Source: a virus
Lineage: Duplodnaviria > Caudoviricetes
DNA length: 62,089 nt
Virus record (IMG/VR): IMGVR_UViG_3300032243_000799
Coordinates: 1-62,089 of that record
Direction: 5' to 3' (one strand)
Under the pieces are notes generated by a model. The model had not been told where the DNA came from. It worked only from the letters and a program-made list of their open reading frames with translations, and searched no databases. Below, one piece after another: positions 27,780-42,838 of this stretch (position 1 is the stretch's first letter; every line of letters begins with the position of its first letter). The position numbers and the translations under genes were made by a program.

Positions 27780-27816
27780 TAATCCTGCGGATTTGGGCTG
27801 GTTGGGTCTAGTCAGC
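27780..27816. repeat. Family B motif copy 1
   Basis: TAATCC-TGC-GGATTT-N14-TAGTCAGC. Confidence 0.85.
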
Positions 27817-27827
27817 CAAATATTCGA

Positions 27828-27909
27828 CGCAAGTACTTGTCGCCAAAGGACTTACGACGAAATTTCGGCCGCAAATTTAACGTAAGTGCTTATCCCACAA
27901 CAACTTAGA
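27828..27909. repeat. 82-bp element A2
   Basis: CGCAAGTACTTGTCGCCAAAGGACTTACG + 24 bp + CGTAAGTGCTTATCCCACAACAACTTAGA. Confidence 0.92.
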
Positions 27910-27921
27910 ACAATATCTAAC

Positions 27922-27936
27922 GCAAAACTCATGCCA
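27922..27936 (-). promoter_or_regulatory. Sigma54-type box
   Basis: Minus strand TGGCATG-AGTT-TTGC, starting 13 nt after element A2. Confidence 0.55.
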
Positions 27937-28053
27937 TACTTGTGTCAAAATTTCTTGACATAAAAATCATAGGATTTTTCTTGCAGTGCTCAAGATAGTG
28001 TGGTAGAATGTCGATATAAGAGTAAGAGAGCAACAAAGAAAGAGAGAGTTGAT

Positions 28054-28254
28054 ATGATGAATGTTGGTGATTTTGTGACTGTTTCCTATGATAATGGGAA
28101 TATTTATTCTGGAGAAGTTATCGGTTTGAAATCTATGCTTCCTGGAGATGGTCACGAGACTGAGCGTGTCCTATTTACGCTGAGGGTTGATAATCAGTAT
28201 CGATCACTGTACGTTCACAAGTGTGTATCGTTAGAGATTGCGGTTCCGGCTTGA
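28054..28254 (+). CDS. Early hypothetical protein (SH3/Sm-like beta barrel)
   Basis: MMNVGDFVTVSY...YSGEV; promoter and purine leader. Confidence 0.65.
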   Translation: MMNVGDFVTVSYDNGNIYSGEVIGLKSMLPGDGHETERVLFTLRVDNQYRSLYVHKCVSLEIAVPA

Positions 28255-28304
28255 CAGATTAAAGTTAGCCTGTAAAATTGTCGATATAAGAGATAGAAAA
28301 GGGA

Positions 28305-28490
28305 ATGAAAATGACTAATGCAGAATATGAAACTTGGAAGAATCAATACGATAAGGAAATCGAAAATACTAAGCCTGTGGAGTTGTGCCGTACCACACAA
28401 AAGCGTAAGGTTCGTCGTGGTTCAGCAGGACGCAACTATTATGGCGAACTTCGCCGTTTTAGGGGTTATCGTGGCCCGTTGACAAATTAA
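28305..28490 (+). CDS. Early basic hypothetical protein
   Basis: Own TTGACA promoter. Confidence 0.6.
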   Translation: MKMTNAEYETWKNQYDKEIENTKPVELCRTTQKRKVRRGSAGRNYYGELRRFRGYRGPLTN

Positions 28491-28533
28491 AGTCTATGTT
28501 GTAGAATGTCGATATAAGAGAAAGAGAGCAAAA

Positions 28534-28719
28534 ATGAATCCTTCCACTACCAACGTTACGATTCACGCAACTACCATTCAGGGTATTTTTGTGACTGTAA
28601 AAAGTTTCGATGTAATCATTGAGAACGGAAAGCCGGTGATTATGTTTTTTACGGTTGACGAAAACGGCCAGCATGGTATCTTTAATCATAACCAACTGAA
28701 AAACTACATTGAGCGTTAA
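28534..28719 (+). CDS. Early hypothetical protein
   Basis: Own TTGACA/TAGAAT promoter. Confidence 0.65.
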   Translation: MNPSTTNVTIHATTIQGIFVTVKSFDVIIENGKPVIMFFTVDENGQHGIFNHNQLKNYIER

Positions 28720-28720
28720 A

Positions 28721-28834
28721 ATGAAAACGAAGAAAAAGAGCAAGCAACAGAAAGTAATGGAAACGGAAGTTAATCGGGCACTGGCTCGGGTGAAGTTGCT
28801 GGAAAAGTTGTATCTCAAGAGTAAAGGAAAGTAA
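28721..28834 (+). CDS. Small basic protein (37 aa)
   Basis: Exactly fills the gap between its neighbours. Confidence 0.5.
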   Translation: MKTKKKSKQQKVMETEVNRALARVKLLEKLYLKSKGK

Positions 28835-29161
28835 ATGACTCACACTGAAGCCGTTAGCATGGTTCGTGGTAAGCGTAACGCTAACCGTCGTAAGGTTGGC
28901 AATAATACCTATGCCGAAATTCTGTCGGATGGTAGCGTTGGTATCATGCTGCACAGTACCTATGTTGTGAAGATTCACGAAAACAATCTTTATACTCTGA
29001 ATACTGGCGGATGGTATACGCCTACCACTAAGGATAGGATTAACCAGTTTTGTCCTGCTAGAGTTTCTCAGCGTAAGGGACAATGGTATGTTTCTCGTAA
29101 GTGTGCTGATGGTTGCCGAAATGAATTTCCCTTTGTCGATGGAATGGTGGTGCAGGGATGA
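28835..29161 (+). CDS. Conserved phage early protein
   Basis: NNT...LHST...LNTGGWYTPTTKDRIN...VSQRKGQWYV pattern. Confidence 0.7.
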   Translation: MTHTEAVSMVRGKRNANRRKVGNNTYAEILSDGSVGIMLHSTYVVKIHENNLYTLNTGGWYTPTTKDRINQFCPARVSQRKGQWYVSRKCADGCRNEFPFVDGMVVQG

Positions 29162-29364
29162 ACTTAATTAATTGTGGCCTTTTCGTTATCGTAACTATGG
29201 TTGTAATGGTTTGCTTTGCGGAAATCTTTCTCATGTTGTGGGACGGGATTGACCGATATATGACTAGGCGAGCAGATTACAAGATGATGAGCCAGTATGT
29301 GGAAAACCCTGTGGTTATGATTAATGAAAAGGGTGAAGAATACTGGGTGGGTTACTCTAAATAA
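29158..29364 (+). CDS. Small membrane protein
   Basis: Hydrophobic N-terminus; ATGA-coupled. Confidence 0.6.
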   Translation: MNLINCGLFVIVTMVVMVCFAEIFLMLWDGIDRYMTRRADYKMMSQYVENPVVMINEKGEEYWVGYSK

Positions 29365-29565
29365 AAGAAAGGATTCCAGGGATGGTATTAACAATTGACG
29401 GATTTAGTTTTAGCCTTGGTTGTATTGCTACTATTTGTGCTGTTTATTTTGTAAGTGATCTGGTTTTTACTAGGGAGAGTGAAAATGAACGCGACGAATT
29501 CTGAGAGAGTTTTTCTTTTGGCATCATTTTTGCTGGGGTGTGCATTGACTATTTTGATGTTGTGA

Positions 29566-29647
29566 CCTAAACCCTTGCAACTAAAGGACTTAGGGCGAGG
29601 GAGCGGCGCCCCGCGAATCGTAAGTGCTTATGCCACAAGTACTTAGA
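29566..29647. repeat. 82-bp element A3
   Basis: CCTAAACCCTTGCAACTAAAGGACTTAGG + 24 bp + CGTAAGTGCTTATGCCACAAGTACTTAGA. Confidence 0.92.
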
Positions 29648-29659
29648 GATAATGCTGAC

Positions 29660-29674
29660 GCAAAAGCTGTGCCG
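29660..29674 (-). promoter_or_regulatory. Sigma54-type box
   Basis: Minus strand CGGCACA-GCTT-TTGC, starting 13 nt after element A3. Confidence 0.5.
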
Positions 29675-29785
29675 CAAAAATATTTCTGGTTTGGCACAGA
29701 ATTATATTTTGAATTTCTCAAAGAATCCTCTTGCGTTGGCCGATAATTAGTGTAGACTAAGAGCATCACAACGGAGAACAGTATC

Positions 29786-29974
29786 ATGTTGAACGATTTC
29801 GATGATGTGAACCGTCTGCTGTCTGAGATGCGTGACGAGGGATTGGTCGAGCCGATTGACGATTCCACCCTCAATGTCGATTTTTGGGATTGGGCCGATG
29901 TGGTCGGAATTGTGGATGAGTTTGAACCGCAAGAGATGGTTGACGAGAGCGGCGAAGTGTGGTATGTTTCTTGA
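29786..29974 (+). CDS. Acidic early protein
   Basis: GGAG SD; D/E-rich. Confidence 0.7.
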   Translation: MLNDFDDVNRLLSEMRDEGLVEPIDDSTLNVDFWDWADVVGIVDEFEPQEMVDESGEVWYVS

Positions 29975-29987
29975 GAGGAGATAGTCG

Positions 29988-30251
29988 ATGAGTCACCCAG
30001 ACCCCTTGTTCGATCCCGATAACTCTTATGAGGATGATGACATGGAATACCATGACGATAGCACAGATATCAATTATGACGATCACAACGATTTCCACGC
30101 CGATGAAAATTGGTGGGCGGATAGGGCAGAGGACGATGCCGACGAATATGATGACAATATGGATGGAGATCACGATTCATCAATGGATTCTATTGGTTGG
30201 GGAGACGATGATAGTCTGGCATATGGTGGTGTCGGTTACGAGGATTGGTGA
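29988..30251 (+). CDS. Extremely Asp-rich protein (87 aa)
   Basis: GAGGAG SD; DGDHDSSMDSIGWGDD C-terminus. Confidence 0.75.
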   Translation: MSHPDPLFDPDNSYEDDDMEYHDDSTDINYDDHNDFHADENWWADRAEDDADEYDDNMDGDHDSSMDSIGWGDDDSLAYGGVGYEDW

Positions 30252-30256
30252 TATTT

Positions 30257-30547
30257 ATGGAAACTGAAAATATCAAAAATTGGATTTCTAACTTTTTCAC
30301 TAAGGATAATAAGATGACGAAGATTGTTGTGACGCATACGGATACTTTTGGTGGCGAGCCTAATTTTGGTTGGGTGAAGCGTTACGAGTTTCCGATTAAT
30401 AGTGGGGCTTCTCAGCGTAATATTGTGCGTCGGGCTAAGTTTCTCGCCGGTATGACTGGTGTTAAGGCTGACACTTATGATTATGGTGACGGCTATACCG
30501 TTAAGCCTCGCGGATATCACCAAGTCATTTTTGTTGATTTTGAGTGA
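30257..30547 (+). CDS. Early hypothetical protein
   Basis: TDTFGGEPNFGWVKR motif; start uncertain. Confidence 0.65.
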   Translation: METENIKNWISNFFTKDNKMTKIVVTHTDTFGGEPNFGWVKRYEFPINSGASQRNIVRRAKFLAGMTGVKADTYDYGDGYTVKPRGYHQVIFVDFE

Positions 30548-30684
30548 CAATCAACTCGCCGGTGAACCTTGCGGAAATGAAAGAGTATTGGCTCGAAAAT
30601 TTTTCTCAAGTGGGTACTTGACACTTGTCGATAATAGTGTAGAATTGGTGGTATAAGGGTTTGATTTCTAACTGAAAGGGTTTT

Positions 30685-31095
30685 ATGAACGACGTAGTTT
30701 TGATTGGTGGTATTTTTGCGGCTGTGGTGTGTGGTCTTCTGGCCTTTAGCCTTTTCCATATCTATCGTGGTGTTCACGGTAGTCTGGCGAATGCTCAGGT
30801 TGGTGAGGTTTATAATTTTGAATATCTGCAACCGCATCATGGTGATCCGGTTAGGATTCTTGCTAGGGTGATTGAGCCGGTTTATACTTTGGATAAGTCT
30901 TCTATCGAGAGACTGAATCGACGCAGTGGTTATCGTAAGAACGATTCGCAGTTCAAGAGGACTAATCATCTTGTAACATGTGAGACTCCTGATGGTTCTA
31001 TCCGACAGTTTTATGCTGAACGTGCTCGTAACATTCGCAGGCCATTGCTTGCAGGGCTGCTCTTCCGTACAGGTACTGCACATCTGTTCGCGTGA
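30685..31095 (+). CDS. Membrane-anchored early protein
   Basis: N-terminal TM helix; own promoter at 30618-30645. Confidence 0.7.
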   Translation: MNDVVLIGGIFAAVVCGLLAFSLFHIYRGVHGSLANAQVGEVYNFEYLQPHHGDPVRILARVIEPVYTLDKSSIERLNRRSGYRKNDSQFKRTNHLVTCETPDGSIRQFYAERARNIRRPLLAGLLFRTGTAHLFA

Positions 31096-31123
31096 ACAAT
31101 AGTTCAGTTCGGCTAAACCCGGC

Positions 31124-31205
31124 TCTAAGTTGTTGCCCCACAACGACTTAGGGTTTGGGGGCGCCGCCGGATTCGCCGTAAGTGCTTATACCACAACGCT
31201 TTACG
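31124..31205. repeat. 82-bp element A4
   Basis: TCTAAGTTGTTGCCCCACAACGACTTAGG + 24 bp + CGTAAGTGCTTATACCACAACGCTTTACG. Confidence 0.92.
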
Positions 31206-31266
31206 TTTAAAAAGATTTTTTCAAGACTGTCCTTGACTCTATCCGATAATACTGTAGACTAAGAGT

Positions 31267-31431
31267 ATGAATACTAACTACTGCTACTCCGGATATTCGT
31301 GGCGTGTTTTTCAGCATAACCGATTTGTGGGTTATGTAGTGGCTATGAGCGAACTGGACGCTCTGCGTAAGGCCAAAGAAAAGTTTGGATCGTATCTCTG
31401 GGTAGAGCGGATTGTTGACTGTTCCACGTAA
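31267..31431 (+). CDS. Early protein (54 aa), probably leaderless
   Basis: ATG 6 nt after the TAGACT -10; its stop is the TAA of a family B motif. Confidence 0.6.
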   Translation: MNTNYCYSGYSWRVFQHNRFVGYVVAMSELDALRKAKEKFGSYLWVERIVDCST

Positions 31432-31465
31432 TCCTTCGGATTTGGCTGGTTTGGCTGTAGTCAGT
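31429..31465. repeat. Family B motif copy 2
   Basis: TAATCC-TTC-GGATTT-N14-TAGTCAGT. Confidence 0.85.
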
Positions 31466-31528
31466 CAGAAATCGGTGGTCTTGACAAGTCGTACTCTATA
31501 AGATAAAATCTTAGCAAAGGAGAGAGAT

Positions 31529-32035
31529 ATGCCTAACTGGTGTTTGAATAATTTGACCATTGAGCATGAAGATCGGTCTAAGGTTATGGAGTTTGTCCAC
31601 GCCTATAAAGAGGGTAAGGTTTGTGACCATTATCTTCCTGTACCAAAGGATGAAAAGGGCGAACTTATTACTGATGAATCTAGTTCTAATTATTGGTATA
31701 CATGGTGCATAAATAACTGGGGAACAAAGTGGGATATTGGTAGTGATAATAATGAGGTTCATGGGCTGAATCCTACAGTGGTTGGTAATCAGGCTACTAT
31801 GAGTTTTGATAGTGCATGGAATCCTCCTATTAGGCTGTATGAGAAACTGCACGAACTTGGATTTAGTGTTGAGGCTACCTATTTTGAGCCGGGTATGGGA
31901 TACTGTGGACTATTCCGAGACGGAGAAGATAATTATACTGAGTATAATAGCAAAGATATGATTCCTAAGCGTATTTGGGATGACTATAATCTTGATGAGT
32001 TTTTTAGTGATGATGAAGAAAAAGTAGAAGCATAA
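31529..32035 (+). CDS. DUF1281/YubB/Api92-like ferredoxin-fold protein
   Basis: MPNWCxN...WYxWCxxNWGTKWD...FDSAWNPP...YFEPGMGYCG. Confidence 0.8.
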   Translation: MPNWCLNNLTIEHEDRSKVMEFVHAYKEGKVCDHYLPVPKDEKGELITDESSSNYWYTWCINNWGTKWDIGSDNNEVHGLNPTVVGNQATMSFDSAWNPPIRLYEKLHELGFSVEATYFEPGMGYCGLFRDGEDNYTEYNSKDMIPKRIWDDYNLDEFFSDDEEKVEA

Positions 32036-32046
32036 GTGCGGCCCGC

Positions 32047-32128
32047 TCTAAGTTCTTTGCCCAAGGGGACTTAGGGTGGGTTTGCCCCGCCAAAATTGTC
32101 CTAACTCCTTATGCCGCAATCACTTGCA
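32047..32128. repeat. 82-bp element A5
   Basis: TCTAAGTTCTTTGCCCAAGGGGACTTAGG + 24 bp + CCTAACTCCTTATGCCGCAATCACTTGCA. Confidence 0.88.
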
Positions 32129-32156
32129 TCAAAAAATATTTTTTCAAGAAACCCTC

Positions 32157-32185
32157 TTGACAGTGCCGATAATAGATAGTAGAAT
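32157..32185 (+). promoter_or_regulatory. Sigma70-type promoter with CCGATA in the spacer (representative of a family)
   Basis: TTGACA-gtgCCGATAatagatag-TAGAAT; near-identical copies at 34972, 35721, 39872, 50027, 57138. Confidence 0.85.
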
Positions 32186-32204
32186 GGTAGAACAGGAGAA
32201 AAAT

Positions 32205-32459
32205 ATGATTGGCTTTACTAGATATTGTTTGACTGATAATGTGCGTAGGGTTGTGGAAGGTGATAATCTGACTTTTTCTGGATATACGTCTAGCGATAGG
32301 CCGTTTATTATTACGGTAAAGTTGAGTGATGCTAATGAATGGCTGAATGGTGGACTGATCCAGAGTTGCTTTCCGTATCTGGATTCTGAACAGCGTGAGA
32401 TTCTGATGACGGGTAATGATAATGAGGCTTGGGCAAGTATGTTTGGGGAGGGTGAGTAA
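32205..32459 (+). CDS. Early hypothetical protein
   Basis: AGGAG SD; LIQSCFPYLDSEQREILMTG motif. Confidence 0.7.
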   Translation: MIGFTRYCLTDNVRRVVEGDNLTFSGYTSSDRPFIITVKLSDANEWLNGGLIQSCFPYLDSEQREILMTGNDNEAWASMFGEGE

Positions 32460-32629
32460 TGAGCGATCCATATTGGACATTTCCGCAGTTTCCTGAGAAT
32501 GATAGTTGGGAAGTTCGATATTTGTGTTGGCGAGCATGTGGTGAAACTAGAGAACAAAGCACAAGACTATCTAATGAAGGCTATATGCCTGCTAGTTGGT
32601 GGATGCTTTATAGAAATGATGGGAAGTAG
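32459..32629 (+). CDS. Early hypothetical protein (56 aa)
   Basis: TAATG coupling. Confidence 0.5.
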   Translation: MSDPYWTFPQFPENDSWEVRYLCWRACGETREQSTRLSNEGYMPASWWMLYRNDGK

Positions 32630-32631
32630 AA

Positions 32632-32856
32632 ATGACTGTTAACGAACTTATTGAGCAGTTGAAGAGTTATCCTGGCGATATGAGGGTATTGACTCTTGGG
32701 TATGAGGGTGGGTTTAATGAACTTAGCCTGAGAACTGAGGATATTGTATTCAATGTGAACGATGAAGATAAATGGTATTATGGCCCTCATGAGTGTGTTA
32801 AGTATACTAATAGTGATATTAGTATGAAATGTGTGATTGTAGGGAGGGAAAGATGA
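32632..32856 (+). CDS. Conserved small phage protein
   Basis: MTVNELIEQLKSYPGDMRV...GYEGG. Confidence 0.7.
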   Translation: MTVNELIEQLKSYPGDMRVLTLGYEGGFNELSLRTEDIVFNVNDEDKWYYGPHECVKYTNSDISMKCVIVGRER

Positions 32857-33147
32857 TCTATCTTAATCTTAATGATATTGAGCGGTTGGCCGAAATTGTG
32901 GCCGAACTGGTTAAGTTGGATATGACTGTGGTTGCTGAGTTGAAGGGAACTAAGTGGAGTATTGAGGTGACTAAATGAGCAATGAAATAAACTATGGTGA
33001 TTGGTGTGATGATTGGGCTTGGTATTGTGATCCATTTAAGTATGAACGAGTAGCATCATATTGTTGTTGTCCTGAAGAAACAGAAGCTGTTCTCAAGGGC
33101 GAAGTTTGGGACGGTAAAACTAAGTATATGATTAATAGATCGGAAGG

Positions 33148-33414
33148 TTGAGTATGGAATGGATTAGTTTTTTCGGCCCACGGCGTCCTATTAATGGACA
33201 GAAGGTATACTACTTTGGGCCAGATGTTGGCGTGTGGCAGGGAAGGTATGAGATTCATAGGGATGATCCTGTTAGTGAACATATTTTAATTTGTGAAGAA
33301 AGTCCCGGTATTGTTGATAGGATGGACGCTCCATACTGGCAACCGTATGAAGGGCAACCTAAACCAGAACGACCAGTAACCGACTATCCAAAGGATTATC
33401 CGTCTTATGAATAA
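33148..33414 (+). CDS. Early hypothetical protein (DUF551-like)
   Basis: MEWISF...YWQPY pattern. Confidence 0.55.
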   Translation: MSMEWISFFGPRRPINGQKVYYFGPDVGVWQGRYEIHRDDPVSEHILICEESPGIVDRMDAPYWQPYEGQPKPERPVTDYPKDYPSYE

Positions 33415-33560
33415 AAATCAGGCTATGATTCATATTATCAACTTTCTCAACTCTCGTATGAGTGCAATGAGTAAGAGTAATGTGGATAAGGTAAAAGAGT
33501 TGATTGGACTACATGAAATTTCAGCAAGTGAACTTGTGAATAAATATGTGGAGTTAGTTC

Positions 33561-33698
33561 GTGAAAACTCTTAGTGACATTTGCGACTGTGGTAACTGTA
33601 GAGAAACGCTTTATACTGTGGATAAGTATGGGATCGTATGGAGTTTGTGCGGCGATTGTGGCTGGTGGTACATAAGTTACCGCTACATAAGCACTTAG
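33561..33698 (+). CDS. Small Cys-rich zinc-finger-like protein (45 aa)
   Basis: GTG start after GGAG; CDCGNC...CGDC; its stop TAG lies inside element A6. Confidence 0.45.
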   Translation: MKTLSDICDCGNCRETLYTVDKYGIVWSLCGDCGWWYISYRYIST

Positions 33699-33752
33699 GA
33701 CGAATCCGCGGGGCAATTGTTGACCTAACTCCTTATACCACAATACTTTACG
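33671..33752. repeat. 82-bp element A6
   Basis: CATAAGTTACCGCTACATAAGCACTTAGG + 24 bp + CCTAACTCCTTATACCACAATACTTTACG. Confidence 0.88.
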
Positions 33753-33810
33753 TTCAAAAAAATATTTTTCAAGAAATCTCTTGACTAGGCCGATAATAGA
33801 GATATACTTA

Positions 33811-33900
33811 GGAGGCAAGGCTTGGGGATAGCCACAATGATATCAAAAGAGGCTATCTGAAATGTTGGTCGAGTATGGCGGAAGCCAGCCTTGTTTCTCC
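33811..33900 (+). ncRNA. Candidate structured small RNA
   Basis: Promoter at 33781-33808 and no evident ORF; closing stem GGAGGCAAGGCT/AGCCTTGTTTCTCC, inner GATAGCC/GGCTATC and TGGC-GGAA-GCCA. Confidence 0.5.
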
Positions 33901-33937
33901 TAATCCTTCGGATTTGGGCTGGATGGGTATAGTCAGC
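33901..33937. repeat. Family B motif copy 3
   Basis: TAATCC-TTC-GGATTT-N14-TAGTCAGC. Confidence 0.85.
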
Positions 33938-33987
33938 GAAAGTCTGGTGGTCTTGACAAGAGTTGGTCGATAAGGTATAGTAGTAGC

Positions 33988-36479: not shown

Positions 36480-36529
36480 GATTTTGGTGTATATACTAGT
36501 GGGCTTTAACTCACTAGGAGATATACACT

Positions 36530-37090
36530 ATGAAACATACTAATATAAGTCAATATATAAGAGCAAATAAGGATGAATTTAAACAACATATTTTAAATAG
36601 AAAAACAGAAAAAGAATTATCTGAAATATATGGTTGTTCTAATGCAACAATCATAGCAATGAAAAAAGAGTTAAAGTTACAATCAGGAGATTTATTTAAA
36701 GAAAATAGATTTAACCATAAATCTGACATAACACACTGTAAAAGTTGTGATCAAAAAAGCAAAAAAAATACTTGTTCTAAGTGCGTACAAAAAAGATCAA
36801 ATATAGCTAAAAAAGAACTATTAGTTGAAAAGGCTGGTGGAAAATGCATTAAGTGTGGATATAAAGAATGTATAGCCGCCTTGGACTTTCATCATATTGA
36901 CCCTAAAACTAAAGAAATAAATCTTAATACAAATTTAAATATAGACATTAAATTAAAAGAAATAAAAAAATGTGTTTTGCTATGCTGTCGATGTCATAGA
37001 GAACTGCACTGGCAAGAGACTATTGACTTTGTTCAAGCAAACAGATACGCTATAGACAAGACGAAAGAAAGATTGTTTCCTGCTCACTAA
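36530..37090 (+). CDS. HNH homing endonuclease (AT-rich insertion)
   Basis: GGKCIKCGY...ALDFHHIDP...KCVLLCCRCHRELH. Confidence 0.85.
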   Translation: MKHTNISQYIRANKDEFKQHILNRKTEKELSEIYGCSNATIIAMKKELKLQSGDLFKENRFNHKSDITHCKSCDQKSKKNTCSKCVQKRSNIAKKELLVEKAGGKCIKCGYKECIAALDFHHIDPKTKEINLNTNLNIDIKLKEIKKCVLLCCRCHRELHWQETIDFVQANRYAIDKTKERLFPAH

Positions 37091-37101
37091 AAGGTATTAA
37101 A

Positions 37102-37362
37102 ATGGCTAAGTATTATATTAAGTGTGGAAGTTTGGAACTAATCTACTCTTGCAATAAAAAGCCTATGGCAGCGGCTGCTGATGCACTGTGGGAAACAAAT
37201 GAGTATGATACTCTAGATGAATACTTTTATGTAGATGAGCGTGGATTTAAAACCTATGCTAATGCTTTGCCGGATACCAAAGTTTATCCTATTGACAAAG
37301 TTATGAAAAAGGGCGGATGGACTATGGAAAAGAAAAACGACGACAATTGTGAAGGAAAGTGA
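37102..37362 (+). CDS. Early hypothetical protein
   Basis: MAKYYIKCGSL...YVDERGF. Confidence 0.7.
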   Translation: MAKYYIKCGSLELIYSCNKKPMAAAADALWETNEYDTLDEYFYVDERGFKTYANALPDTKVYPIDKVMKKGGWTMEKKNDDNCEGK

Positions 37363-37368
37363 ACTAAC

Positions 37369-37450
37369 CGCAAACCCTTGGTGCGTAAGCACTTAGGGCT
37401 AGCGGGGCCGCCCCGGCTGATCCTAAGTCCTTTAGCAGCAACAACTTAGA
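37369..37450. repeat. 82-bp element A9
   Basis: CGCAAACCCTTGGTGCGTAAGCACTTAGG + 24 bp + CCTAAGTCCTTTAGCAGCAACAACTTAGA. Confidence 0.9.
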
Positions 37451-37535
37451 GAAAAAAGATTTTTTCAAGTTTCTGCTACGGATGGTCGATAATATAGATA
37501 TGGAACGAGAGAAGGTCTTGACAAAAGGTGGAAAC

Positions 37536-37907
37536 ATGATACAATGGGTGACTGTGCTGATTACATTGATTGGTTTGGCCTATAATGGTGTAAAGGATTA
37601 TCAGAAGGGGGAGATAAAAATTCCCCAAATGCCACAAAAGCAAGTATTGACAAAACCAGTTTATCCGGTACAATACTGTGTAATGGCTTATGATCCTAAT
37701 TTAGATAGAGTTTTTTACTTACATGAAAACGGACAATGGTATGATTACGCTCCACAACAACGACGATATGAGTCCTCGCCGCAAGTACGGCAACAAAATC
37801 AAGTTGAAGGTTCGCAAGCCTTGGGAAACTCCTACGGGTCACAAGGAACATCGGGATACCGTTATGGACAATCGACCCAAGCGTCAGCGTACACGATGCG
37901 ACGTTGA
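37536..37907 (+). CDS. Membrane-anchored protein with Gln-rich tail
   Basis: MIQWVTVLITLIGLAY hydrophobic start, AGGTGG SD. Confidence 0.55.
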   Translation: MIQWVTVLITLIGLAYNGVKDYQKGEIKIPQMPQKQVLTKPVYPVQYCVMAYDPNLDRVFYLHENGQWYDYAPQQRRYESSPQVRQQNQVEGSQALGNSYGSQGTSGYRYGQSTQASAYTMRR

Positions 37908-37938
37908 CAGAAGTTGGCGAAAAGAGTATGATATGTAG
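37723..37938 (+). CDS. Basic small protein overlapping the previous ORF in another frame
   Basis: RKPWETPTGHKEHR...DNRPKRQRTR; TTGACA/TACAAT promoter at about 37648. Confidence 0.5.
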   Translation: MKTDNGMITLHNNDDMSPRRKYGNKIKLKVRKPWETPTGHKEHRDTVMDNRPKRQRTRCDVDRSWRKEYDM

Positions 37939-37941
37939 ATT

Positions 37942-38014
37942 GCCGGTATAACTCAGTTAGCAGAGTGTCAAATTTGTAATTTGAATGTCGTGGGTGCAAA
38001 TCCTACTACCGGCT
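37942..38014 (+). tRNA. tRNA-Thr(TGT)
   Basis: GCCGGTA/TACCGGC, TCAAA-TTTGTAA-TTTGA; T-loop TGCAAAT. Confidence 0.85.
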
Positions 38015-38053
38015 TTATAAGTCAAAAGAAAAAACGTATGTAAAGGAAGATGA

Positions 38054-38125
38054 TCCGGAGTGGTGAAACTGGTATCACAAACGGCTTTGGTCCGTTTATT
38101 CATGGATCGTACCCATGCTCCGGAA
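38054..38125 (+). tRNA. tRNA-Gln(TTG)
   Basis: TCCGGAG/CTCCGGA, AACGG-CTTTGGT-CCGTT; T-loop ATCGTAC. Confidence 0.82.
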
Positions 38126-38130
38126 TTAGA

Positions 38131-38202
38131 TGCCCTGTAGCACAACGGTTGTGCAAGATGCTGTTAACATCGAGGTTGTAGGTTCGAATCCTACCGGGGC
38201 AG
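38131..38202 (+). tRNA. tRNA-Asn(GTT)
   Basis: TGCCCTG/CGGGGCA, GATG-CTGTTAA-CATC. Confidence 0.9.
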
Positions 38203-38205
38203 TTA

Positions 38206-38292
38206 GGAAGAATGGCAGAGCGGTCTAATGCATCTGATTACTAATCAGAAGAAGTGTAAAAACTTCCGTGGGTTCGAATCCTACTTCTTCCG
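38206..38292 (+). tRNA. tRNA-Ser(ACT), long variable arm
   Basis: GGAAGAA/TTCTTCC with G73, TCTGA-TTACTAA-TCAGA, variable arm GAAGT..ACTTC. Confidence 0.85.
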
Positions 38293-38320
38293 TCGGAGGC
38301 TGACGTTGAGTTGCGAGTGT

Positions 38321-38392
38321 GGCCCCATAGTATAATGGCTAGTATATCGGGCTTTCATCCCGAAGATCGGAGTTCGATCCTCCGTGGGGCTA
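38321..38392 (+). tRNA. tRNA-Glu(TTC)
   Basis: GGCCCCA/TGGGGCT, TCGGG-CTTTCAT-CCCGA. Confidence 0.9.
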
Positions 38393-38458
38393 CTAAAGTT
38401 TTGGGTCTTGACAGGTCGATATTGGTATGGTAGACTGTTGGAACAAGAAAGGAAAGTG

Positions 38459-38626
38459 ATGATGAAGAACCTTCGCATCTATGATATTCTGACCGAGGAT
38501 GGTAAATCTCTGGCCGACATTCACCTATCCATACAAGAGGATTTTGATTGGTCAGACGTATTCGACAAACTGTATGATTTTACTACAGAAAATGTTCAGA
38601 GTTATTCTTATGAGGAAATTAAGTGA
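38459..38626 (+). CDS. Acidic hypothetical protein
   Basis: Promoter at 38408, AAGGA SD. Confidence 0.6.
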   Translation: MMKNLRIYDILTEDGKSLADIHLSIQEDFDWSDVFDKLYDFTTENVQSYSYEEIK

Positions 38627-38865
38627 ATAATTTTGAGATTGGTGATGTGGTTTGGTATGAGACTGGTTTTCATACTGCTAGTCGTGCTAGGATTGTTGGT
38701 ATTGGTGGTAAGGGTGTGACGAAAACCTATATTGTCCATTTTATTGATCATTCTTCCGATCAAGATGATGGTAGCGGATACAATAGAAGCCATTATTGTA
38801 ATGGTGGTATTCCTGTATCATGGCGAAAATGTAAGGCTATTGACTATATAGGGAACGAGAAGTAG
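38623..38865 (+). CDS. SH3-like hypothetical protein
   Basis: FEIGDVVWY...ARIVG. Confidence 0.6.
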   Translation: MNNFEIGDVVWYETGFHTASRARIVGIGGKGVTKTYIVHFIDHSSDQDDGSGYNRSHYCNGGIPVSWRKCKAIDYIGNEK

Positions 38866-38876
38866 AATACAGCCAT

Positions 38877-38950
38877 GGGCCTCTAGCACAATCGGCTAGT
38901 GCAAGAAACTTTTAATTTCTAGGTTGTGGGTTCGAGTCCCACGGGGCCCA
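38877..38950 (+). tRNA. tRNA-Lys(TTT)
   Basis: GGGCCTC/GGGGCCC, AGAAA-CTTTTAA-TTTCT. Confidence 0.92.
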
Positions 38951-39001
38951 CTTGACAGTTGATTTGTTTGGTGTATGATGGTGATAACGAAGGAGCAAGA
39001 G

Positions 39002-39178
39002 ATGAGATACGAAGATAACGAATCCTATAACTATGACTATGATGAGTTGGTTGAAAATGCCGACGAATTGTATACACAGGACGATGAGCCTTGGATGGAT
39101 GAATATGAGGATACTGATGATCTTCGTGAATATGATAGTTATTACCATAACGTAGCCGAAGAAATTGCTGACGATTGA
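39002..39178 (+). CDS. Very acidic, Tyr-rich protein (58 aa)
   Basis: AAGGAG SD; own promoter. Confidence 0.7.
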   Translation: MRYEDNESYNYDYDELVENADELYTQDDEPWMDEYEDTDDLREYDSYYHNVAEEIADD

Positions 39179-39282
39179 TTCTCTTCTGAATGGACGCAAC
39201 TTGGTGGGACAAGTATCTAAAAAAAGCACAAACGCTTTCTTCCTTTCTCTAGTACGTTCAAATCGTACCGTCCGTTTTTACC

Positions 39283-39789
39283 ATGAATATTCTGGAATCT
39301 GAAGTGGATGACTATCGTAAAACTTCTGATGGTAAAATTATCCAAGGTGCTAGCCACACTTGTCGTGTTCTGAATCACAAAGAACGCAATAAGATCATTA
39401 TCAAGGCAGTGTGCAACCTTCGGAAAATTAGTGATAATTTCGATAGTATTGTTTGTTGCGGCGTAAGTGGCCTCATGGTGGTTCCGCAAGTTGCTGAACT
39501 GCTGAATAAGAATATCATCATTATTCGTAAGAAGAACGAGAATTGTTATTCAGAATTTTCCATTGAGGGAGTATCACCCTTTAGGTATATTATCCTTGAC
39601 GATCTTATTTGTAGTGGCAATACTGTGCGGTATATACAACGGAGTATCAGCAGCGAATTCCCAAGGGCTAAGTGTTTAGGGTTATATTGCTATATTCCCG
39701 ACGAGTGTGCGTATACTTCCGAAACTTCTAAATTGTTTGAGCGTGACTTCCACATGCCTCTCCTAAATCCTTGCCCGACAAGGACTTAG
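39283..39789 (+). CDS. Type I phosphoribosyltransferase-fold protein
   Basis: IIILDDLICSGNT PRPP-binding loop; IVCCGVSG; IIIRKK. Confidence 0.8.
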   Translation: MNILESEVDDYRKTSDGKIIQGASHTCRVLNHKERNKIIIKAVCNLRKISDNFDSIVCCGVSGLMVVPQVAELLNKNIIIIRKKNENCYSEFSIEGVSPFRYIILDDLICSGNTVRYIQRSISSEFPRAKCLGLYCYIPDECAYTSETSKLFERDFHMPLLNPCPTRT

Positions 39790-39843
39790 GACGAGTTCGC
39801 GGGGCCGGGCTGGTCGTAAGTGCTTATCTCCCAACCACTTGCG
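39762..39843. repeat. 82-bp element A10
   Basis: CCTAAATCCTTGCCCGACAAGGACTTAGG + 24 bp + CGTAAGTGCTTATCTCCCAACCACTTGCG; supplies the stop codon of the PRTase. Confidence 0.92.
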
Positions 39844-39936
39844 ACACGAAATTTTTTCTCAAAGTTTCCGCTTGACAGTGCCGATAACATACTGTAGAAT
39901 GAGTGGAGTAGAACGAAGAACGATAACACGAAAGGG

Positions 39937-40893
39937 ATGATTATGCCTGCTGCTGTTGAAAAGATGATGTTCGTTGGTGAGACGCCGTGGCACGGTCTGG
40001 GCAATCAGTTGGATGAGGCTCCGACGATTGGCGAGGCTATTACCGCTGCCGGTCTGGATTGGGAAGTTGGTCTGAAGGATTTGCAGACCGTTGACGGCGT
40101 TCCGGTTTCGCATCGTGCGACCTACCGCAAGACCGATGGTAGCATCCTCGGTGTGGTTGGGCCTCGCTATACGCCCCTCCAGAATCAGGATGCTTTCGAC
40201 TGGTTCCAGCCGTTTCTAGATGCTGGCGAGTGCAATCTGCATACCGCTGGTTCGCTACATAGCGGTCAAAAGGTCTGGGTGCTTGCTCAACTCAACCGTG
40301 ACAATAGCGAGATCGTGAAGGGTGATGATGTCTGCAAGTTTATTCTGCTGTCGAATAGCCATGATGGCACGACTGCGATTCGCGTCGGATATACTCCGAT
40401 TCGCGTCGTTTGCGTGAATACTCTCGCGGCTGCTCACAGCAAGAGTAGTGGAAGCAAACTGATTCGTATTCGTCACACTCGTTCCAGCAAGAACAATCTG
40501 GAAAATGTGCGTGATATTATGGATAACATTAATGCTGAGTTTGAGGCGACTGCGGAACAGTATCGGTTCCTCGCGTCGAAGAATTTTAATCAGGCCGATG
40601 TTCGTCGGTATGTTAAGGTTCTGCTGGGTATAGAAGGTACTGTGGATGCGGATATTAAAACCCGCACCCGTAATATCATGGACGATATTCTGGCTCGTAT
40701 CGAAGGCCCGAAGCAAAGTGCTACTGGTGTTCGTGGAACCTACTGGGCTGCATACAACGGATACAATGAGTATCTCAATTATGCTAAGGGTCGAACCTCG
40801 GACAACCGACTCGACTCGCTCTGGTTCGGCCAGAACGCTAACGACAACGTGAAGGCACTGGAGACTGCTATGCAGTTTGCCAACGCCCTCTGA
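39937..40893 (+). CDS. DUF932 family protein
   Basis: TPWHGLG...AGLDWEV...YTPLQN...TAGSLHSGQKVW...LLSNSHDGT...TPIRVVCVNTL...WAAYNGYNEY. Confidence 0.88.
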   Translation: MIMPAAVEKMMFVGETPWHGLGNQLDEAPTIGEAITAAGLDWEVGLKDLQTVDGVPVSHRATYRKTDGSILGVVGPRYTPLQNQDAFDWFQPFLDAGECNLHTAGSLHSGQKVWVLAQLNRDNSEIVKGDDVCKFILLSNSHDGTTAIRVGYTPIRVVCVNTLAAAHSKSSGSKLIRIRHTRSSKNNLENVRDIMDNINAEFEATAEQYRFLASKNFNQADVRRYVKVLLGIEGTVDADIKTRTRNIMDDILARIEGPKQSATGVRGTYWAAYNGYNEYLNYAKGRTSDNRLDSLWFGQNANDNVKALETAMQFANAL

Positions 40894-40911
40894 TCGGTAA
40901 ACTTTAAACTG

Positions 40912-40955
40912 AGTCGCCGTAGGGGCTGCTAGAGGCTCCTGCGGCGATTCTATTT
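40912..40955 (+). terminator. Hairpin terminator after the DUF932 gene
   Basis: GTCGCCGTAGGGGC...GCTCCTGCGGCGAT followed by TCTATTT. Confidence 0.6.
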
Positions 40956-40973
40956 AGATACAGACCAACTCGA

Positions 40974-41055
40974 CGTAAGTGCTTGTGACATAAGGACTTA
41001 GGACGAGCCGGGGCCGCCAATTTAGTCGTAAGTTTAAGTGCCACAAGGGGTTACG
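40974..41055. repeat. 82-bp element A11
   Basis: CGTAAGTGCTTGTGACATAAGGACTTAGG + 24 bp + CGTAAGTTTAAGTGCCACAAGGGGTTACG. Confidence 0.9.
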
Positions 41056-41121
41056 CTCAATTCTATCAAAGAATCTCAAGTTACGTCATGTACAATCGAC
41101 GCAAGTGACGATACAATGGAG

Positions 41122-41150
41122 TGTAAGGTGTTGGTGTGTAAGGGTTTAGG
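41122..41150. repeat. Lone 29-bp palindrome (right boundary copy of family A)
   Basis: TGTAAGGTGTTG-GTGTG-TAAGGGTTTAGG. Confidence 0.65.
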
Positions 41151-41224
41151 ATAAGAATGATTTAGAGTTATGTCTAGATGACTAATTCTAAGTCTATTTT
41201 AGTTTTCATCCTATCTGTACCACC

Positions 41225-41261
41225 TAATCCTACGGATTTGCCGAACATGCCGATAGTCAGC
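41225..41261. repeat. Family B motif copy 4
   Basis: TAATCC-TAC-GGATTT-N14-TAGTCAGC. Confidence 0.85.
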
Positions 41262-41298
41262 CAAAAATCAGGGTCTTTTGTGCAGAGAGGAAATTTAA

Positions 41299-41448
41299 AT
41301 GCAAATTGATTTTAGTCCTAATGAAATGTGGAAGATTATTGATGCTATCAAGTCTTATCAAAAGGACTATGCTGTTACTGGGGCTGTTAGTAAAACTCTT
41401 AGTAATATTCTAATTAAACTTAAGAAGAAACTTAACTGTACTACCTAA
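41299..41448 (+). CDS. Small protein (49 aa) between two family B motifs
   Basis: GAGG SD; its stop is the TAA of motif B copy 5. Confidence 0.55.
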   Translation: MQIDFSPNEMWKIIDAIKSYQKDYAVTGAVSKTLSNILIKLKKKLNCTT

Positions 41449-41482
41449 TCCTACGGATTTGGCGAAGATGGCTGTAGTCAGC
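41446..41482. repeat. Family B motif copy 5
   Basis: TAATCC-TAC-GGATTT-N14-TAGTCAGC. Confidence 0.85.
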
Positions 41483-41654
41483 GAGATTAAGGAGTTACTT
41501 AAGAGTATAGTTTAAGAAGTTGATTGACCACTAATCGCCCCATGGTATAATTACACTTGTCAACGGAGCCAGTAGTCAGTCAGGGTTAAAGCCTTGGTGG
41601 AATATTGGAATCATGGGCAAAACGTAATTTTTTACTTTTACCATGAGGTGATTT

Positions 41655-41897
41655 ATGCAGAATGTTACTCTTAGTAGTGTTAACAGAGAAGAGATTCAAA
41701 GAAAGTATATTGACCACATATTAGGGTCATTAGACTTTATGGAGATCAAAGATAGATTAAGAGACTATCTTGAGATTGAAAAGCAGAAAGAATCTGATAA
41801 AGCCTTAGAGGCTGAGATTCTTCATGAGGCTCCTGATGTGTTAGTAGATAATTGGGAAGACTTTAGTGGTCCAACAACATTTACTAAAGGAGAATAA
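41655..41897 (+). CDS. Hypothetical protein
   Basis: GAGGTG SD. Confidence 0.65.
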   Translation: MQNVTLSSVNREEIQRKYIDHILGSLDFMEIKDRLRDYLEIEKQKESDKALEAEILHEAPDVLVDNWEDFSGPTTFTKGE

Positions 41898-41899
41898 TC

Positions 41900-42145
41900 A
41901 TGACTAGAACTTTTAATAGAATAATCACCTTTCATGTTCAGGGTGAAATCTACGATGATCATACTACTGCTGAAGATGTAATCAGAAATTATAATTTCAA
42001 TTATAAAGATTACAACGACGGTATTGATCAATCATACGTGCTTCTTGATCATAAGGATGCTAGAGGTCGAATCACTAAGATAACTAGACTTCCTAAGATT
42101 CATAGATGGAAGAAGCCTGATACTGAATTGTTTATTAATTTATAA
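41900..42145 (+). CDS. Hypothetical protein
   Basis: AAGGAG SD. Confidence 0.65.
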   Translation: MTRTFNRIITFHVQGEIYDDHTTAEDVIRNYNFNYKDYNDGIDQSYVLLDHKDARGRITKITRLPKIHRWKKPDTELFINL

Positions 42146-42198
42146 TATTCTTCTTTTGGATTATGGTGGGCTAATAGTTTTTCGCTATTAGTCTCACC

Positions 42199-42235
42199 TA
42201 ATCCTTTAGATTTGGAATTTTTGTAAGTAGTCAGC
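42199..42235. repeat. Family B motif copy 6 (degenerate)
   Basis: TAATCC-TTT-AGATTT-N14-TAGTCAGC. Confidence 0.7.
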
Positions 42236-42801
42236 GAACTCCGTTGGTCGATAGGCTTGCGACAGTTTGTGTGTGTTACCCTATAGTATCAGAATTTTTT
42301 TTGTGGTCAAGTGTGAATTTTTCTGATGTGGTGCAGGAGGAATAGTAATGGTTATATCTATTACTGATACTAGTTACTTAGATACAAGTTACTTAGTTAC
42401 TAAGATTCTAAAATACTAATGATCCCAACCGATGCATAATATATATGTTTATTTTTCACAGTTGTCAAGCAAACAAACCGTCTTAAAGATTTTTTTATTT
42501 TGATATGAAAATACTTGCGGCGACCAATCATGTTCCTATCATAGGTTGTGTGTTGTGTGAGGATTGAAATGATACTTAGTCCAGAAATAATCTTGAGTTT
42601 GACCCTACCATTGGTTAGTTCATCTGAACTTCTAAAGGTTGAAAAACCTATAGTCAAAATTAATGCCCCTACTAATAGAACTCCATACATTATAGATTCA
42701 GAAGATCTCTGGATAGATAGTGTCAATAGTTCAAGGACTGATAAAGTTATTACAAATAAGGATGTTGAATTCAAAATTAGAAAAGAATAAACTGTACTAC
42801 C

Positions 42802-42838
42802 TAATACTGCCCGATTGGTTTTATTGGTAATAGTCAGC
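42802..42838. repeat. Family B motif copy 7 (degenerate)
   Basis: TAATAC...TAGTCAGC with the same 29-nt offset; preceded by ACTGTACTACC as in copy 5. Confidence 0.65.

Follow-up and report, generated by a model that had tools for sequence, protein, structure and literature searches.

What is the function of a short motif that recurs in an uncultivated phage genome always in the same orientation and with the same internal spacing? The question is raised by the IMG/VR record IMGVR_UViG_3300032243_000799, a fragment of the genome of a large tailed phage from freshwater, which was analysed over the whole length of the record (62,089 bases; hereafter, the window). Within it, the motif TAATCCTNCGGATTT-N14-TAGTCAG occurs exactly at 27780, 31429, 33901, 41225 and 41446, and in degenerate form at 42199 and 42802, always on the plus strand. 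The original prediction on this DNA had compared these copies to the template-strand hairpin promoters of the virion RNA polymerase of coliphage N4. The explanation that we consider the best, and that we hold tentatively, with somewhat less than even confidence, is a different one: the motif would be a punctuation element of early transcripts, specific to one phage clade and to one strand and recognised mainly as plus-strand sequence, which would separate or insulate early units and, secondarily, act as a seam between gene cassettes.

The existence and the geometry of the motif are confirmed. A pattern search allowing up to three mismatches returned six matches in the window, against 0.00 expected from 100 shuffles, the copy at 42199 having two mismatches. 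The copy at 42802 is too degenerate for such a search, and was recovered both by a repeat finder (as a member of family D4, with seven copies of 50 nucleotides) and by a motif profile (E 2.3e-6). The five exact and two degenerate copies described in the original prediction were confirmed at their places, and so were the single orientation, the offset of 29 nucleotides between the first T of TAATCC and TAGTCAG in all seven of them, the middle loop bases of the five intact copies (G, T, T, A and A) and the reuse of the TAA as a stop codon in two of them; a third reuse was found in a mini-frame of 13 codons that precedes the copy at 33901. A hairpin-only match at 22357, TAATCCTTTGGATTT, is not counted as a copy, because TAGTCAG and the other boxes are missing from it.

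What had been described as two blocks separated by 14 arbitrary nucleotides is in fact part of a longer element. The stretch from TAATCC to TAGTCAG is real, while a box on its 5' side, the tail C(G/C)A(A/G)A and two direct repeats within the presumed spacer had been overlooked. The alignment of the seven copies, followed by that of hundreds of copies from relatives, defines an element of ~55 nucleotides with four parts (Table 1), with positions counted from the first T of TAATCC, which is position 0. Within an alignment of 147 diverse copies (A2), the invariant columns are G-8, A2, T13, G15, T23, G24 and AGTCAG at 30-35, and T-7, C-1, T14, C36 and A38 are conserved in at least 90%; therefore, the most constrained bases are located outside the apical hairpin. 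The bipartite protein site that had been offered as a fallback fits this layout. Furthermore, the distance to the 3' box is fixed: among 154 unique copies with TAATCC-N3-GGATT, 142 show the standard spacing, 10 are one nucleotide shorter and 2 have no 3' box.

Table 1. Motif copies in the window with their surroundings, and the parts of the element (parts numbered from the T of TAATCC as position 0; ORF, open reading frame; nt, nucleotides; aa, amino acids)
Feature	Position	Strand	Sequence	Surroundings
Copy 1	27770..27820	+	hairpin intact; core GGGCT-GGTT-GGGTC; profile E 1.3e-15	21 nt past the stop of ORF 27430-27759; a palindromic repeat unit and then a sigma70-like promoter come next
Copy 2	31419..31469	+	core GGCTG-GTTT-GGCTG	TAA is the stop of ORF 31267-31431; TTGACA-N17-TAAAAT promoter begins 16 nt past TAGTCAG
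Copy 3	33891..33941	+	core GGGCT-GGAT-GGGTA; profile E 1.1e-17	at the end of a ~90-nt non-coding unit; TTGACA-N17-TATAGT promoter begins 16 nt past TAGTCAG
Copy 4	41215..41265	+	core GCCGA-ACAT-GCCGA	ribosome-binding site and 49-aa ORF 41299-41448 directly after, with no promoter match between
Copy 5	41436..41486	+	core GGCGA-AGAT-GGCTG	TAA is the stop of ORF 41299-41448; TTGACC-N16-TATAAT promoter downstream at 41524-41551
Copy 6	42189..42239	+	apical hairpin weakened (TAATCC TTT AGATTT); core degenerate, GGAAT-TTTT-GTAAG; both boxes intact; profile E 9.8e-9	
Copy 7	42792..42842	+	hairpin lost (TAATAC TGC CCGATT); core GGTTT-TATT-GGTAA; boxes intact	CGAGAATTTT leads into the ATG (42848) of a 47-aa Lys-rich ORF
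Lone TAGTCAG box	41573..41579	+		leader, ~20 nt past the -10 of promoter 41524-41551; same place in G005
5' box	-10 to -1	+	T(T/A)GTCTCnCC	
Hairpin	0 to 14	+	TAATCC-TNC-GGATTT	
Core	15 to 28	+	14 nt	
3' box	29 to 38	+	(T/C)AGTCAGC(G/C)A	

How widespread is this element? The exact 36-nucleotide pattern is present in at least 117 IMG/VR stretches, and a profile of 127 unique exact copies yields 305 sites when run on these (at least 117) stretches and the window. Five complete or near-complete relatives in IMG/VR (131-244 kb, three of the five with direct terminal repeats) carry 6, 1, 7, 4 and 4 sites of a strict 3'-half pattern, on one strand in each genome and with no match for the reversed control. 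In four of the five, the sites are grouped in a span of 6-12 kb in the early region, and one of the seven sites of G003, apart from the cluster, looks like a chance match. The relative G005 (153.6 kb), which is collinear with the window, has five copies at 87.4-99.7 kb, within the stretch corresponding to ~27-42 kb of the window, and G004 has 5-6 copies, located at 121.4-126.9 kb. The exact pattern is absent from 50,697 GenBank phage records, among which there is also no similarity to the window at the DNA level, and Rfam gave no match at any copy, either at the gathering score or at E values up to 1, in a search that did find a Pistol ribozyme elsewhere in the window. In bacterial genomes (596 Gb), at least 120 stretches match a 16-base 3'-half pattern, for ~280 expected by chance according to our own arithmetic, and the whole motif appears in one of 120 among the matches listed, a 7.4-kb contig of a metagenome-assembled genome labelled as Gammaproteobacteria. 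The motif is therefore a feature of phages and not the signal of a host regulon, and a host regulon promoter was rejected for the same reason. As a further observation on copy arrangement, the stretch L148 holds three head-to-tail copies of the whole motif (1396-1567, plus strand) with a period of 64 nucleotides, followed by a palindromic repeat family, and L149 holds two.

The orientation of the motif goes with that of early transcription. Sigma70-like matches within 1.5 kb of 193 copies amount to 486 on the motif strand and to 71 on the opposite one, all 193 neighbourhoods have a positive GC skew on the strand of the motif, and TAGTCAG itself occurs 377 times on the motif strand and 37 times on the other; a test based on long open frames was uninformative (440 kb on the motif strand versus 396 kb on the opposite strand). 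On the downstream side, a promoter of the form TTGAC-N-TAnnnT lies within 120 nucleotides of 110 of the 201 unique copies, most often at 16 nucleotides (range 9-87), and another 43 of the 201 have an ATG within 25 nucleotides and no promoter match. Some copies directly precede a tRNA gene or a Pistol-like sequence, again with no promoter match in between, and therefore transcripts must either pass the motif or start at it. On the upstream side, an open frame of 40 codons or more ends at the TAA of the motif in 34 copies and at the TAG at +29 in 11, and many copies start 4 nucleotides past a tRNA gene or a conserved non-coding unit. For the 157 copies with 1.2 kb available on both sides, a promoter match is found within 1.2 kb upstream in 86 (median distance of 243 nucleotides) and within 50 nucleotides downstream in 68. 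The unit that ends at the copy at 33901 (33781-33900, plus strand; ~90 nucleotides) is an example of the short units involved: it has its own promoter at 33781-33808, and its word (G/C)CGAGTATGGC is conserved across relatives in its nucleotides and not in a reading frame, so that it looks like a small RNA or a leader rather than a peptide.

The 3' end of the motif provides a more specific clue. GAG is found at positions 37-39 in 15 of the 22 copies with an ATG at 14 nucleotides or less, compared with 3 of the 25 with an ATG at 15-30 nucleotides and 27 of the 110 that precede promoters. Judged from this distribution, the 3' end of the motif appears to serve as a ribosome-binding site where the start codon is close enough, and so it would be part of the mRNA. 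A lone TAGTCAG box is likewise conserved in a leader, both in the window and in G005 (Table 1). It follows from the GAG result that the transcription start site would be placed before position 37, and that the -10 element of any promoter contained in the motif would fall in the variable, G-rich core.

Could the motif, nevertheless, be a promoter by itself? A promoter for the host polymerase is not likely. A double-stranded DNA promoter of a phage-specific class (e.g., for middle genes) is an alternative that we judge unlikely; in it, a redirected host RNA polymerase would read the TTGG/nTGG repeats and the AGTCAGC box, somewhat as the consensus TTGC-N6-TTGC is read by CII of phage lambda, and would start just downstream of the motif, the hairpin being a separate attenuator for the upstream unit. 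The fixed length and spacing agree with it, as do the restriction to phages and the fact that the element is mostly read as sequence, with invariant blocks that, by our own reading, lie ~9-10 nucleotides apart; it would also account for the ORFs, tRNAs and ribozyme that are preceded by the motif and by no other promoter match. Against it speak the GAG result, with the consequence just mentioned for the -10 element, and the lack of a match to the usual spacings of sigma70, ECF (extracytoplasmic function), sigma54 and sigma28 promoters. More generally, none of the usual consensuses for sigma factors, DnaA boxes, Chi, ops and boxA, compared by eye, fits all of the copies. Moreover, the only sigma-like gene is missing from G004, which keeps its copies, the late genes have a different word upstream, and no phage RNA polymerase was found among the window proteins or, with PF00940 and without a positive control, in the five relatives.

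That sigma-like gene encodes a protein of 233 residues (23961-24662, minus strand), heads the late operon and matches Sigma70_r2 with an E value of 1.1e-4, below the Pfam cut-off; it is present in four of the five relatives (58-75% identical) and not in G004. The idea that the motif is the target of this protein was rejected, given that G004 keeps the motif without the gene and that no copy is found on the strand of the late genes. The word of the late genes, TTAGGTGTAT, is found upstream of two of them (8621-8630 and 14200-14209, minus strand) and AAAGGTGTATAAG upstream of a third (~19,450, minus strand), and both are candidate late promoters.

The hairpin, on which the original prediction was centred, turned out to be weak and not constant. 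It is present in the intact copies, with a C-GNA-G loop on the minus strand as had been claimed, and it is missing in many homologous copies. The stem can be extended to CC-U-AAUCC / UNC / GGAUU-U-GG, with fold energies for the seven window copies between -0.4 and -4.4 kcal/mol as RNA and between 0 and -2.3 kcal/mol as minus-strand DNA, in a model that gives no bonus for GNA loops. Pairing is selected in part of the family: AACCC/GGGTT variants, a U-A top pair and re-registered loops of four nucleotides occur, and paired cells amount to 78.2% in A2 and to 73.6% in its shuffles, none of 500 shuffles being as high. In a sample chosen blind to the hairpin, the apical stem is kept in 13 of 33 unique copies and missing in 20 according to our own reading of the listing, and the three apical pairs are unpaired in 14, 42 and 45 of the 147 sequences of A2, while the boxes remain invariant where the hairpin has decayed. 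Thus, the apical hairpin is dispensable. A long-range helix between the UCUC of the 5' box and the GAGA at the 3' end was also considered and discarded, as the two do not covary.

There is, nonetheless, a pattern in the loss of the hairpin: it is intact in 90 of the 110 copies that are followed by a promoter and in 14 of the 43 followed by an ATG, a difference to which shared ancestry may contribute. This is what a composite of terminator and promoter would look like, as the phage-specific promoter would have it, and it is also in line with a terminator or attenuator that would depend on a factor and close each of the short early units, with the hairpin and the box as a signal for pausing or release. 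To this last explanation we give little weight, improbable as it seems to us. It benefits from the fact that the motif closes short units on their 3' side and immediately precedes the next promoter. However, the hairpin is weak, it is followed by the G-rich core instead of a U-run, and a terminator scan of the window found none at any copy, while the boxes stay invariant in the copies whose hairpin has decayed; for these reasons (weak stem, no U-run and no scan match) a canonical intrinsic terminator was rejected. In addition, transcription must pass the copies with an intact hairpin that precede a tRNA or a Pistol-like sequence without any promoter match, and a canonical, GC-rich intrinsic terminator, GGCTGGCCTTGCGCCGGCC followed by T9, does exist elsewhere in the window (~14,210-14,240, minus strand, before the gene for the major head protein), and therefore the host polymerase uses ordinary terminators in this genome. 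That such stem-loops may end transcripts is illustrated by the promoter-early stem-loop (PeSL) cassettes of T4-type phages, described in two reports (Arbiol et al. 2010, PMC2839356; Comeau et al. 2014, PMC4122927), the first of which states that their stem-loops were shown to terminate.

And what about the other strand? According to the original prediction, the minus (template) strand would extrude a mini-hairpin, AATCC-GNA-GGATT, which a phage enzyme would use as an N4-type promoter or else as a signal for priming or nicking; to this we now give almost no credence. Some observations agree with it. All copies are on one strand, the minus-strand DNA hairpins reach approximately -2.2 kcal/mol, some of them being better than their shuffles, and the TNC loop, that is, GNA on the minus strand closed by C:G, is found in 118 of the 127 copies with a perfect stem of five base pairs, although most of these were selected by a pattern that itself required the T and the C. 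Yet loop ends, whose free variation in homologs the original prediction itself had named as a refutation, do vary, with AGC, AAC, ACC, TAT and CCC in the perfect-stem set and the four-nucleotide loops TATC, TGTC and ACGG in copies of the relatives, and the apical hairpin is missing from most of the blind sample. Wobble in the stem favours the plus strand, with 71 G.U cells there against 29 A.C cells (equivalent to G.T on the minus strand) by our own tally, and positions 18-19, which are 11-12 nucleotides away from the middle of the loop, the distance of the fixed +1 in N4, belong here to the variable core.

No enzyme for such a promoter came to light either. Pfam and PHROGs detected no RNA polymerase, primase or HUH nuclease among the window proteins, and PF00940 was found in none of the five complete or near-complete relatives, in a search without a positive control. 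Regarding the large frames in which such a polymerase might be sought, that of 3,074 residues in G004 matches tape-measure families, a frame of the same length being present in G005, and three other large frames of G004 have no family or PDB match and no DxDGD-type motif and are rich in N, S, G and T, which is no more than suggestive; such a composition is frequent in tail fibres. One large frame, of 2,618 residues and rich in the same amino acids (L119:775-8628; 20775-28631 of G004, plus strand), lies downstream of the 3,074-residue tape-measure gene, lacks PHROG, Pfam and PDB matches and probably encodes a tail fibre, to judge from its composition. In N4, as described in a review (PMC4496689), the promoters are likewise a few co-oriented copies in the early region with a small hairpin whose three-nucleotide loop is G-N-A on the template strand, closed by C:G, and both the closing pair and the G and A of the loop are required. 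According to that same review, N4 needs a virion RNA polymerase of ~3,500 residues, a conserved hairpin and a fixed +1, unlike the present motif, with no such polymerase found, a hairpin that is often lost and invariant bases located 15-30 nucleotides downstream of it.

The core is not a spacer. It is built from a direct repeat, TGGxy, found once at positions 14-18 and again at 23-27, and the two copies of the repeat tend to be identical to each other. Over 212 unique copies, with expectations derived from column make-up, positions 17 and 26 are identical in 185 (57.6 expected), 18 and 27 in 137 (59.7 expected) and 16 and 25 in 199 (142.8 expected), whereas the neighbouring pair 19/28 is at chance level (64 versus 56.2). 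As the 212 copies comprise 133 distinct cores, this covariation does not come from a handful of lineages. Superimposed on it, positions 20 and 27 can be paired, as a standard or a wobble pair, in 82% of the copies, compared with 47% expected (z ~10), and the distribution of the combinations (GT in 62, TG in 27 and AC in 7 copies) fits pairing in the plus strand. Cores such as GCTGCCGTTGCTGx or GGAATTTATGGAAA recur at matching places in the copy series of G001, G003 and G004, and the former is also seen with different flanks on both sides and with different hairpin variants; the core is thus conserved as a part of the motif and not free to drift.

Several explanations for this identity were tried without success. 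A third strand that pairs with both repeats was rejected, since no enriched, covarying or complementary segment was detected nearby or in the window: complements of the repeats are not clearly enriched within 200 nucleotides (38 versus 24.3, 17 versus 19.0, 15 versus 19.9 and 12 versus 15.4 in controls), no position between -80 and +120 covaries with 17, 18, 26 or 27 apart from their own neighbours, and no site complementary to the repeats elsewhere in the window exceeds shuffled controls. Variation in the copy number of a 9-nucleotide unit was not seen. A reading of the core as codons or as a start site was rejected as well, given that the frame of the NTG at 22-24 stays open for a median of 16 codons versus 13 in another frame, and that the downstream ATG is in this frame in 15 of 57 near copies, which is no enrichment; the motif therefore encodes no protein start or conserved peptide. 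A more speculative proposal, which we consider very improbable, is that the core represents one and a half copies of a 9-nucleotide unit (TGGxy-nnnn-TGGxy), a layout shared by the templates of prime-and-realign, jumping-back and telomerase-type synthesis, so that a polymerase would make or hold a product of 4-5 nucleotides on the first repeat and re-pair it with the second one, 9 nucleotides downstream. The length of RNA:DNA hybrids is ~9 nucleotides. The enzyme may be an RNA polymerase, a primase or a novel phage enzyme, positioned by the invariant boxes on either side, and, if this were true, the motif would constitute a novel type of site for initiation or slippage in a phage with double-stranded DNA.

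Apart from transcription, the motif marks places where genomes of this clade differ from one another. Copies from different stretches were compared in pairs over flanks of 46 nucleotides, which were taken as shared at 75% identity or more and as different below 45%. In 126 pairs the upstream flank is shared and the downstream one is different, in 94 the reverse is true and in 54 both are shared; one downstream type (a promoter) is joined to eight upstream types, and one upstream type to seven downstream types. The comparison between the window and G005 gives a particular case, in which homology ends 13 nucleotides past the copy at 41225 and resumes inside the copy at 41446, the 49-residue ORF between these two copies being replaced in G005 by ~440 unrelated nucleotides. 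The motif is, then, the breakpoint of cassette swaps.

Is this shuffling the function or only a consequence? As a function, it would make the motif a site of recombination or cassette exchange at the DNA level, where a phage recombinase or nuclease acts at the core and the two alike 5-nucleotide repeats are the sequence used for crossover or realignment. The homology breaks on either side of the motif, the swapped cassette flanked by two copies, the same core with different flanks on both sides and the three tandem copies of 64 nucleotides in one relative all point in this direction, as does the identity of the repeats at positions 17 and 26. Even so, we find this explanation quite improbable. 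The core repeats are direct and not inverted, unlike the arms of known recombinase sites, PHROGs and Pfam revealed no integrase or transposase among the window proteins, and recombination would not require so strict a link with start codons and with the orientation of transcripts. Ordinary homologous recombination between repeats of 50 nucleotides would be enough to produce the junctions, as is argued for the PeSL cassettes in PMC2839356.

The element of early-transcript punctuation that we favour would work as follows. Each site marks the transition from one short early unit, which may be a tRNA, a small ORF or a short non-coding unit, to the next one, which begins with a sigma70-type promoter or directly with a ribosome-binding site, a tRNA or a Pistol ribozyme. 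The host RNA polymerase would transcribe through the motif, and a sequence-specific factor, which might be an early phage protein, a host ribonuclease or an elongation factor, would recognise the single-stranded U(U/A)GUCUC and (U/C)AGUCAGC(G/C)A that flank the hairpin, and would separate or insulate the two units. The hairpin would then remain at the 3' end of the upstream RNA, and the start of the downstream RNA would fall just before its ribosome-binding site. As a by-product, 5-7 near-identical and co-oriented copies per genome would offer crossover points through which early-gene cassettes could be shuffled within and between phages. The position, orientation, fixed length and conservation of the motif, its presence at cassette junctions and the apparent use of its 3' end as a ribosome-binding site are observed here, while the binding of a factor to the RNA and the formation of RNA ends at the motif are inferred.

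Several results weigh against this proposal. No candidate for the binding protein or nuclease was identified, the hairpin is weak as RNA, and RNAalifold predicts no consensus structure for A2, hence no extended RNA structure. In the 110 copies with their own downstream promoter, the motif is outside the transcript of that promoter and would act only on read-through RNA. Contigs from one RNA run and three DNA runs that cover 24,600-44,500 show no starts, ends or usable joints at the motif. A fixed-length element of ~50 base pairs that is mostly read as sequence, with blocks ~9-10 nucleotides apart, would also be compatible with the binding of a protein or a polymerase to double-stranded DNA. 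Finally, the identity covariation of the core, which is robust, is explained by none of the models listed here.

The region that hosts the motif is separated from the rest of the window by strand. From ~24.7 kb down to the left end, the minus strand carries structural and packaging genes, including those for the tape-measure protein (truncated by the contig end), the major head protein and the large terminase, the last being ~25% identical to terminases of Bacillus siphoviruses, as well as a frame of 727 residues without any family match; from ~24.8 kb to the right end, the plus strand carries small genes and, truncated at the right end, a DNA ligase gene. Alternative genetic codes (TGA as W, TAG as Q, TAA as Q) were discarded, as they gave no coherent long frames in 24.5-44.5 kb. 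The RNA genes of the window are nine tRNA genes, one tmRNA and one Pistol ribozyme. The tmRNA (58748-59105) encodes the tag GTNQLALAA, GTTQLALAA in its G005 counterpart, and the tRNA genes include a tRNA-Ile(TAT) at 58438-58511 and a tRNA-Ser with an unusual anticodon, ACT, at 38206-38292. The Pistol ribozyme (35390-35452; 54.8 bits, for a gathering score of 34.5) ends one base before a tRNA-Arg (35454-35525), as if it trimmed the 5' leader of this tRNA; in relatives, a Pistol-like sequence is located 12-15 nucleotides after the motif, with no promoter match in between. For a protein of 143 residues (34418-34849, plus strand), the C-terminal domain of ribosomal protein L7/L12 is a weak match, slightly below the cut-off (E 2.2e-5).

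Other repeated signals coexist with the motif in the plus-strand region. Strong sigma70-like early promoters at 32157, 33781, 34972, 35721, 39872, 50027 and 57138 (plus strand) contain the spacer block (G/T)(G/C)CGATAA; the pattern TTGACNNNNNCGATAA has seven matches in the window versus 1.25 expected, with TCAAAG or TAAAG directly 5' of the -35 box. These promoters with the spacer block resemble an overlapping promoter of the flagellar sigma28 type, with the consensus TAAAG-N15-GCCGATAA. A second repeat family comprises ten copies of a unit of 79 nucleotides between 25506 and 41053 on the plus strand (e.g., 26599-26677, 27828-27906, 29566-29644 and 40974-41052), made of two palindromes, CGTAAGTnCTT...AAGnACTTACG, ~53 nucleotides apart around a G+C-rich spacer and often situated just upstream of early promoters; these units may be operators or sites for the processing of double-stranded RNA.

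If the punctuation proposal were correct, a clade of large uncultivated freshwater phages (131-244 kb, rich in tRNA genes and with terminal repeats) would punctuate its early transcripts by means of a single, near-invariant signal of 55 nucleotides, which would double as the seam for the exchange of early genes devoted to host takeover. The factor that reads the boxes would represent a new sequence-specific activity of RNA or DNA binding, and the fact that two short direct repeats are selected to be identical, for which single-strand base pairing gives no explanation, would point to a mechanism not yet described. On the practical side, the motif would be a sequence handle to find early-gene cassettes and their borders in metagenomes.

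Are there precedents for such an element? Nothing relevant to the 3' box TAGTCAG was found among the 15 best-ranked of 584 papers on phages and promoters, which was the only literature search made for the motif. By its nature, the motif can be grouped with the regulatory repeats found between genes in the early regions of phages, such as PeSL cassettes, start-associated sequences (SAS), stoperators and processing sites, among which it is a novel variant in its sequence, its layout and the covariation of its direct repeats. The RNase III sites of T7 and the nut sites of lambda are punctuation or modifier sites at the RNA level between early genes and combine a hairpin with single-stranded boxes that are read by a protein on the nascent transcript, as is proposed for the motif. 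The former are, however, long imperfect double-stranded RNAs, and the latter consist of boxA and a GNRA-like boxB, with two sites per genome, each just after a promoter; neither has any sequence likeness to the motif, which has no Rfam match. The SAS and extended SAS (ESAS) of mycobacteriophages and their stoperators, of 13-17 base pairs and with 10-30 copies genome-wide, are, like the motif, asymmetric, co-oriented intergenic words of one phage clade that precede gene starts (SAS) or follow the direction of transcription (stoperators). They differ from the motif in sequence, and have neither a bipartite layout of fixed length nor co-varying direct repeats.

A close likeness is found with the PeSL cassettes (PMC2839356; PMC4122927). 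Like the present motif, they are repeated intergenic units of plastic early regions that begin at the stop codon of the upstream gene, contain a stem-loop, adjoin strong sigma70 promoters and extend up to the ribosome-binding site of a small gene whose function is unknown, and they are situated at junctions of insertion, deletion and replacement between relatives, just where the motif is found. Unlike it, their conserved part is the sigma70 promoter itself together with a stable, G/C-rich terminator hairpin, at varying positions, whereas the motif is a separate system of boxes with a fixed length, whose promoter is 9-87 nucleotides away or absent, whose hairpin is weak and dispensable and whose core holds co-varying direct repeats. 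The phages themselves are also unlike those of the T4 type, as they have terminal repeats and belong to another lineage, the tape-measure protein indicating a long non-contractile tail or a contractile one of that other lineage. Should the proposal hold, this clade would thus provide a second, independent example of the principle embodied by the PeSL cassettes, in which regulatory repeats drive the modular shuffling of early genes.

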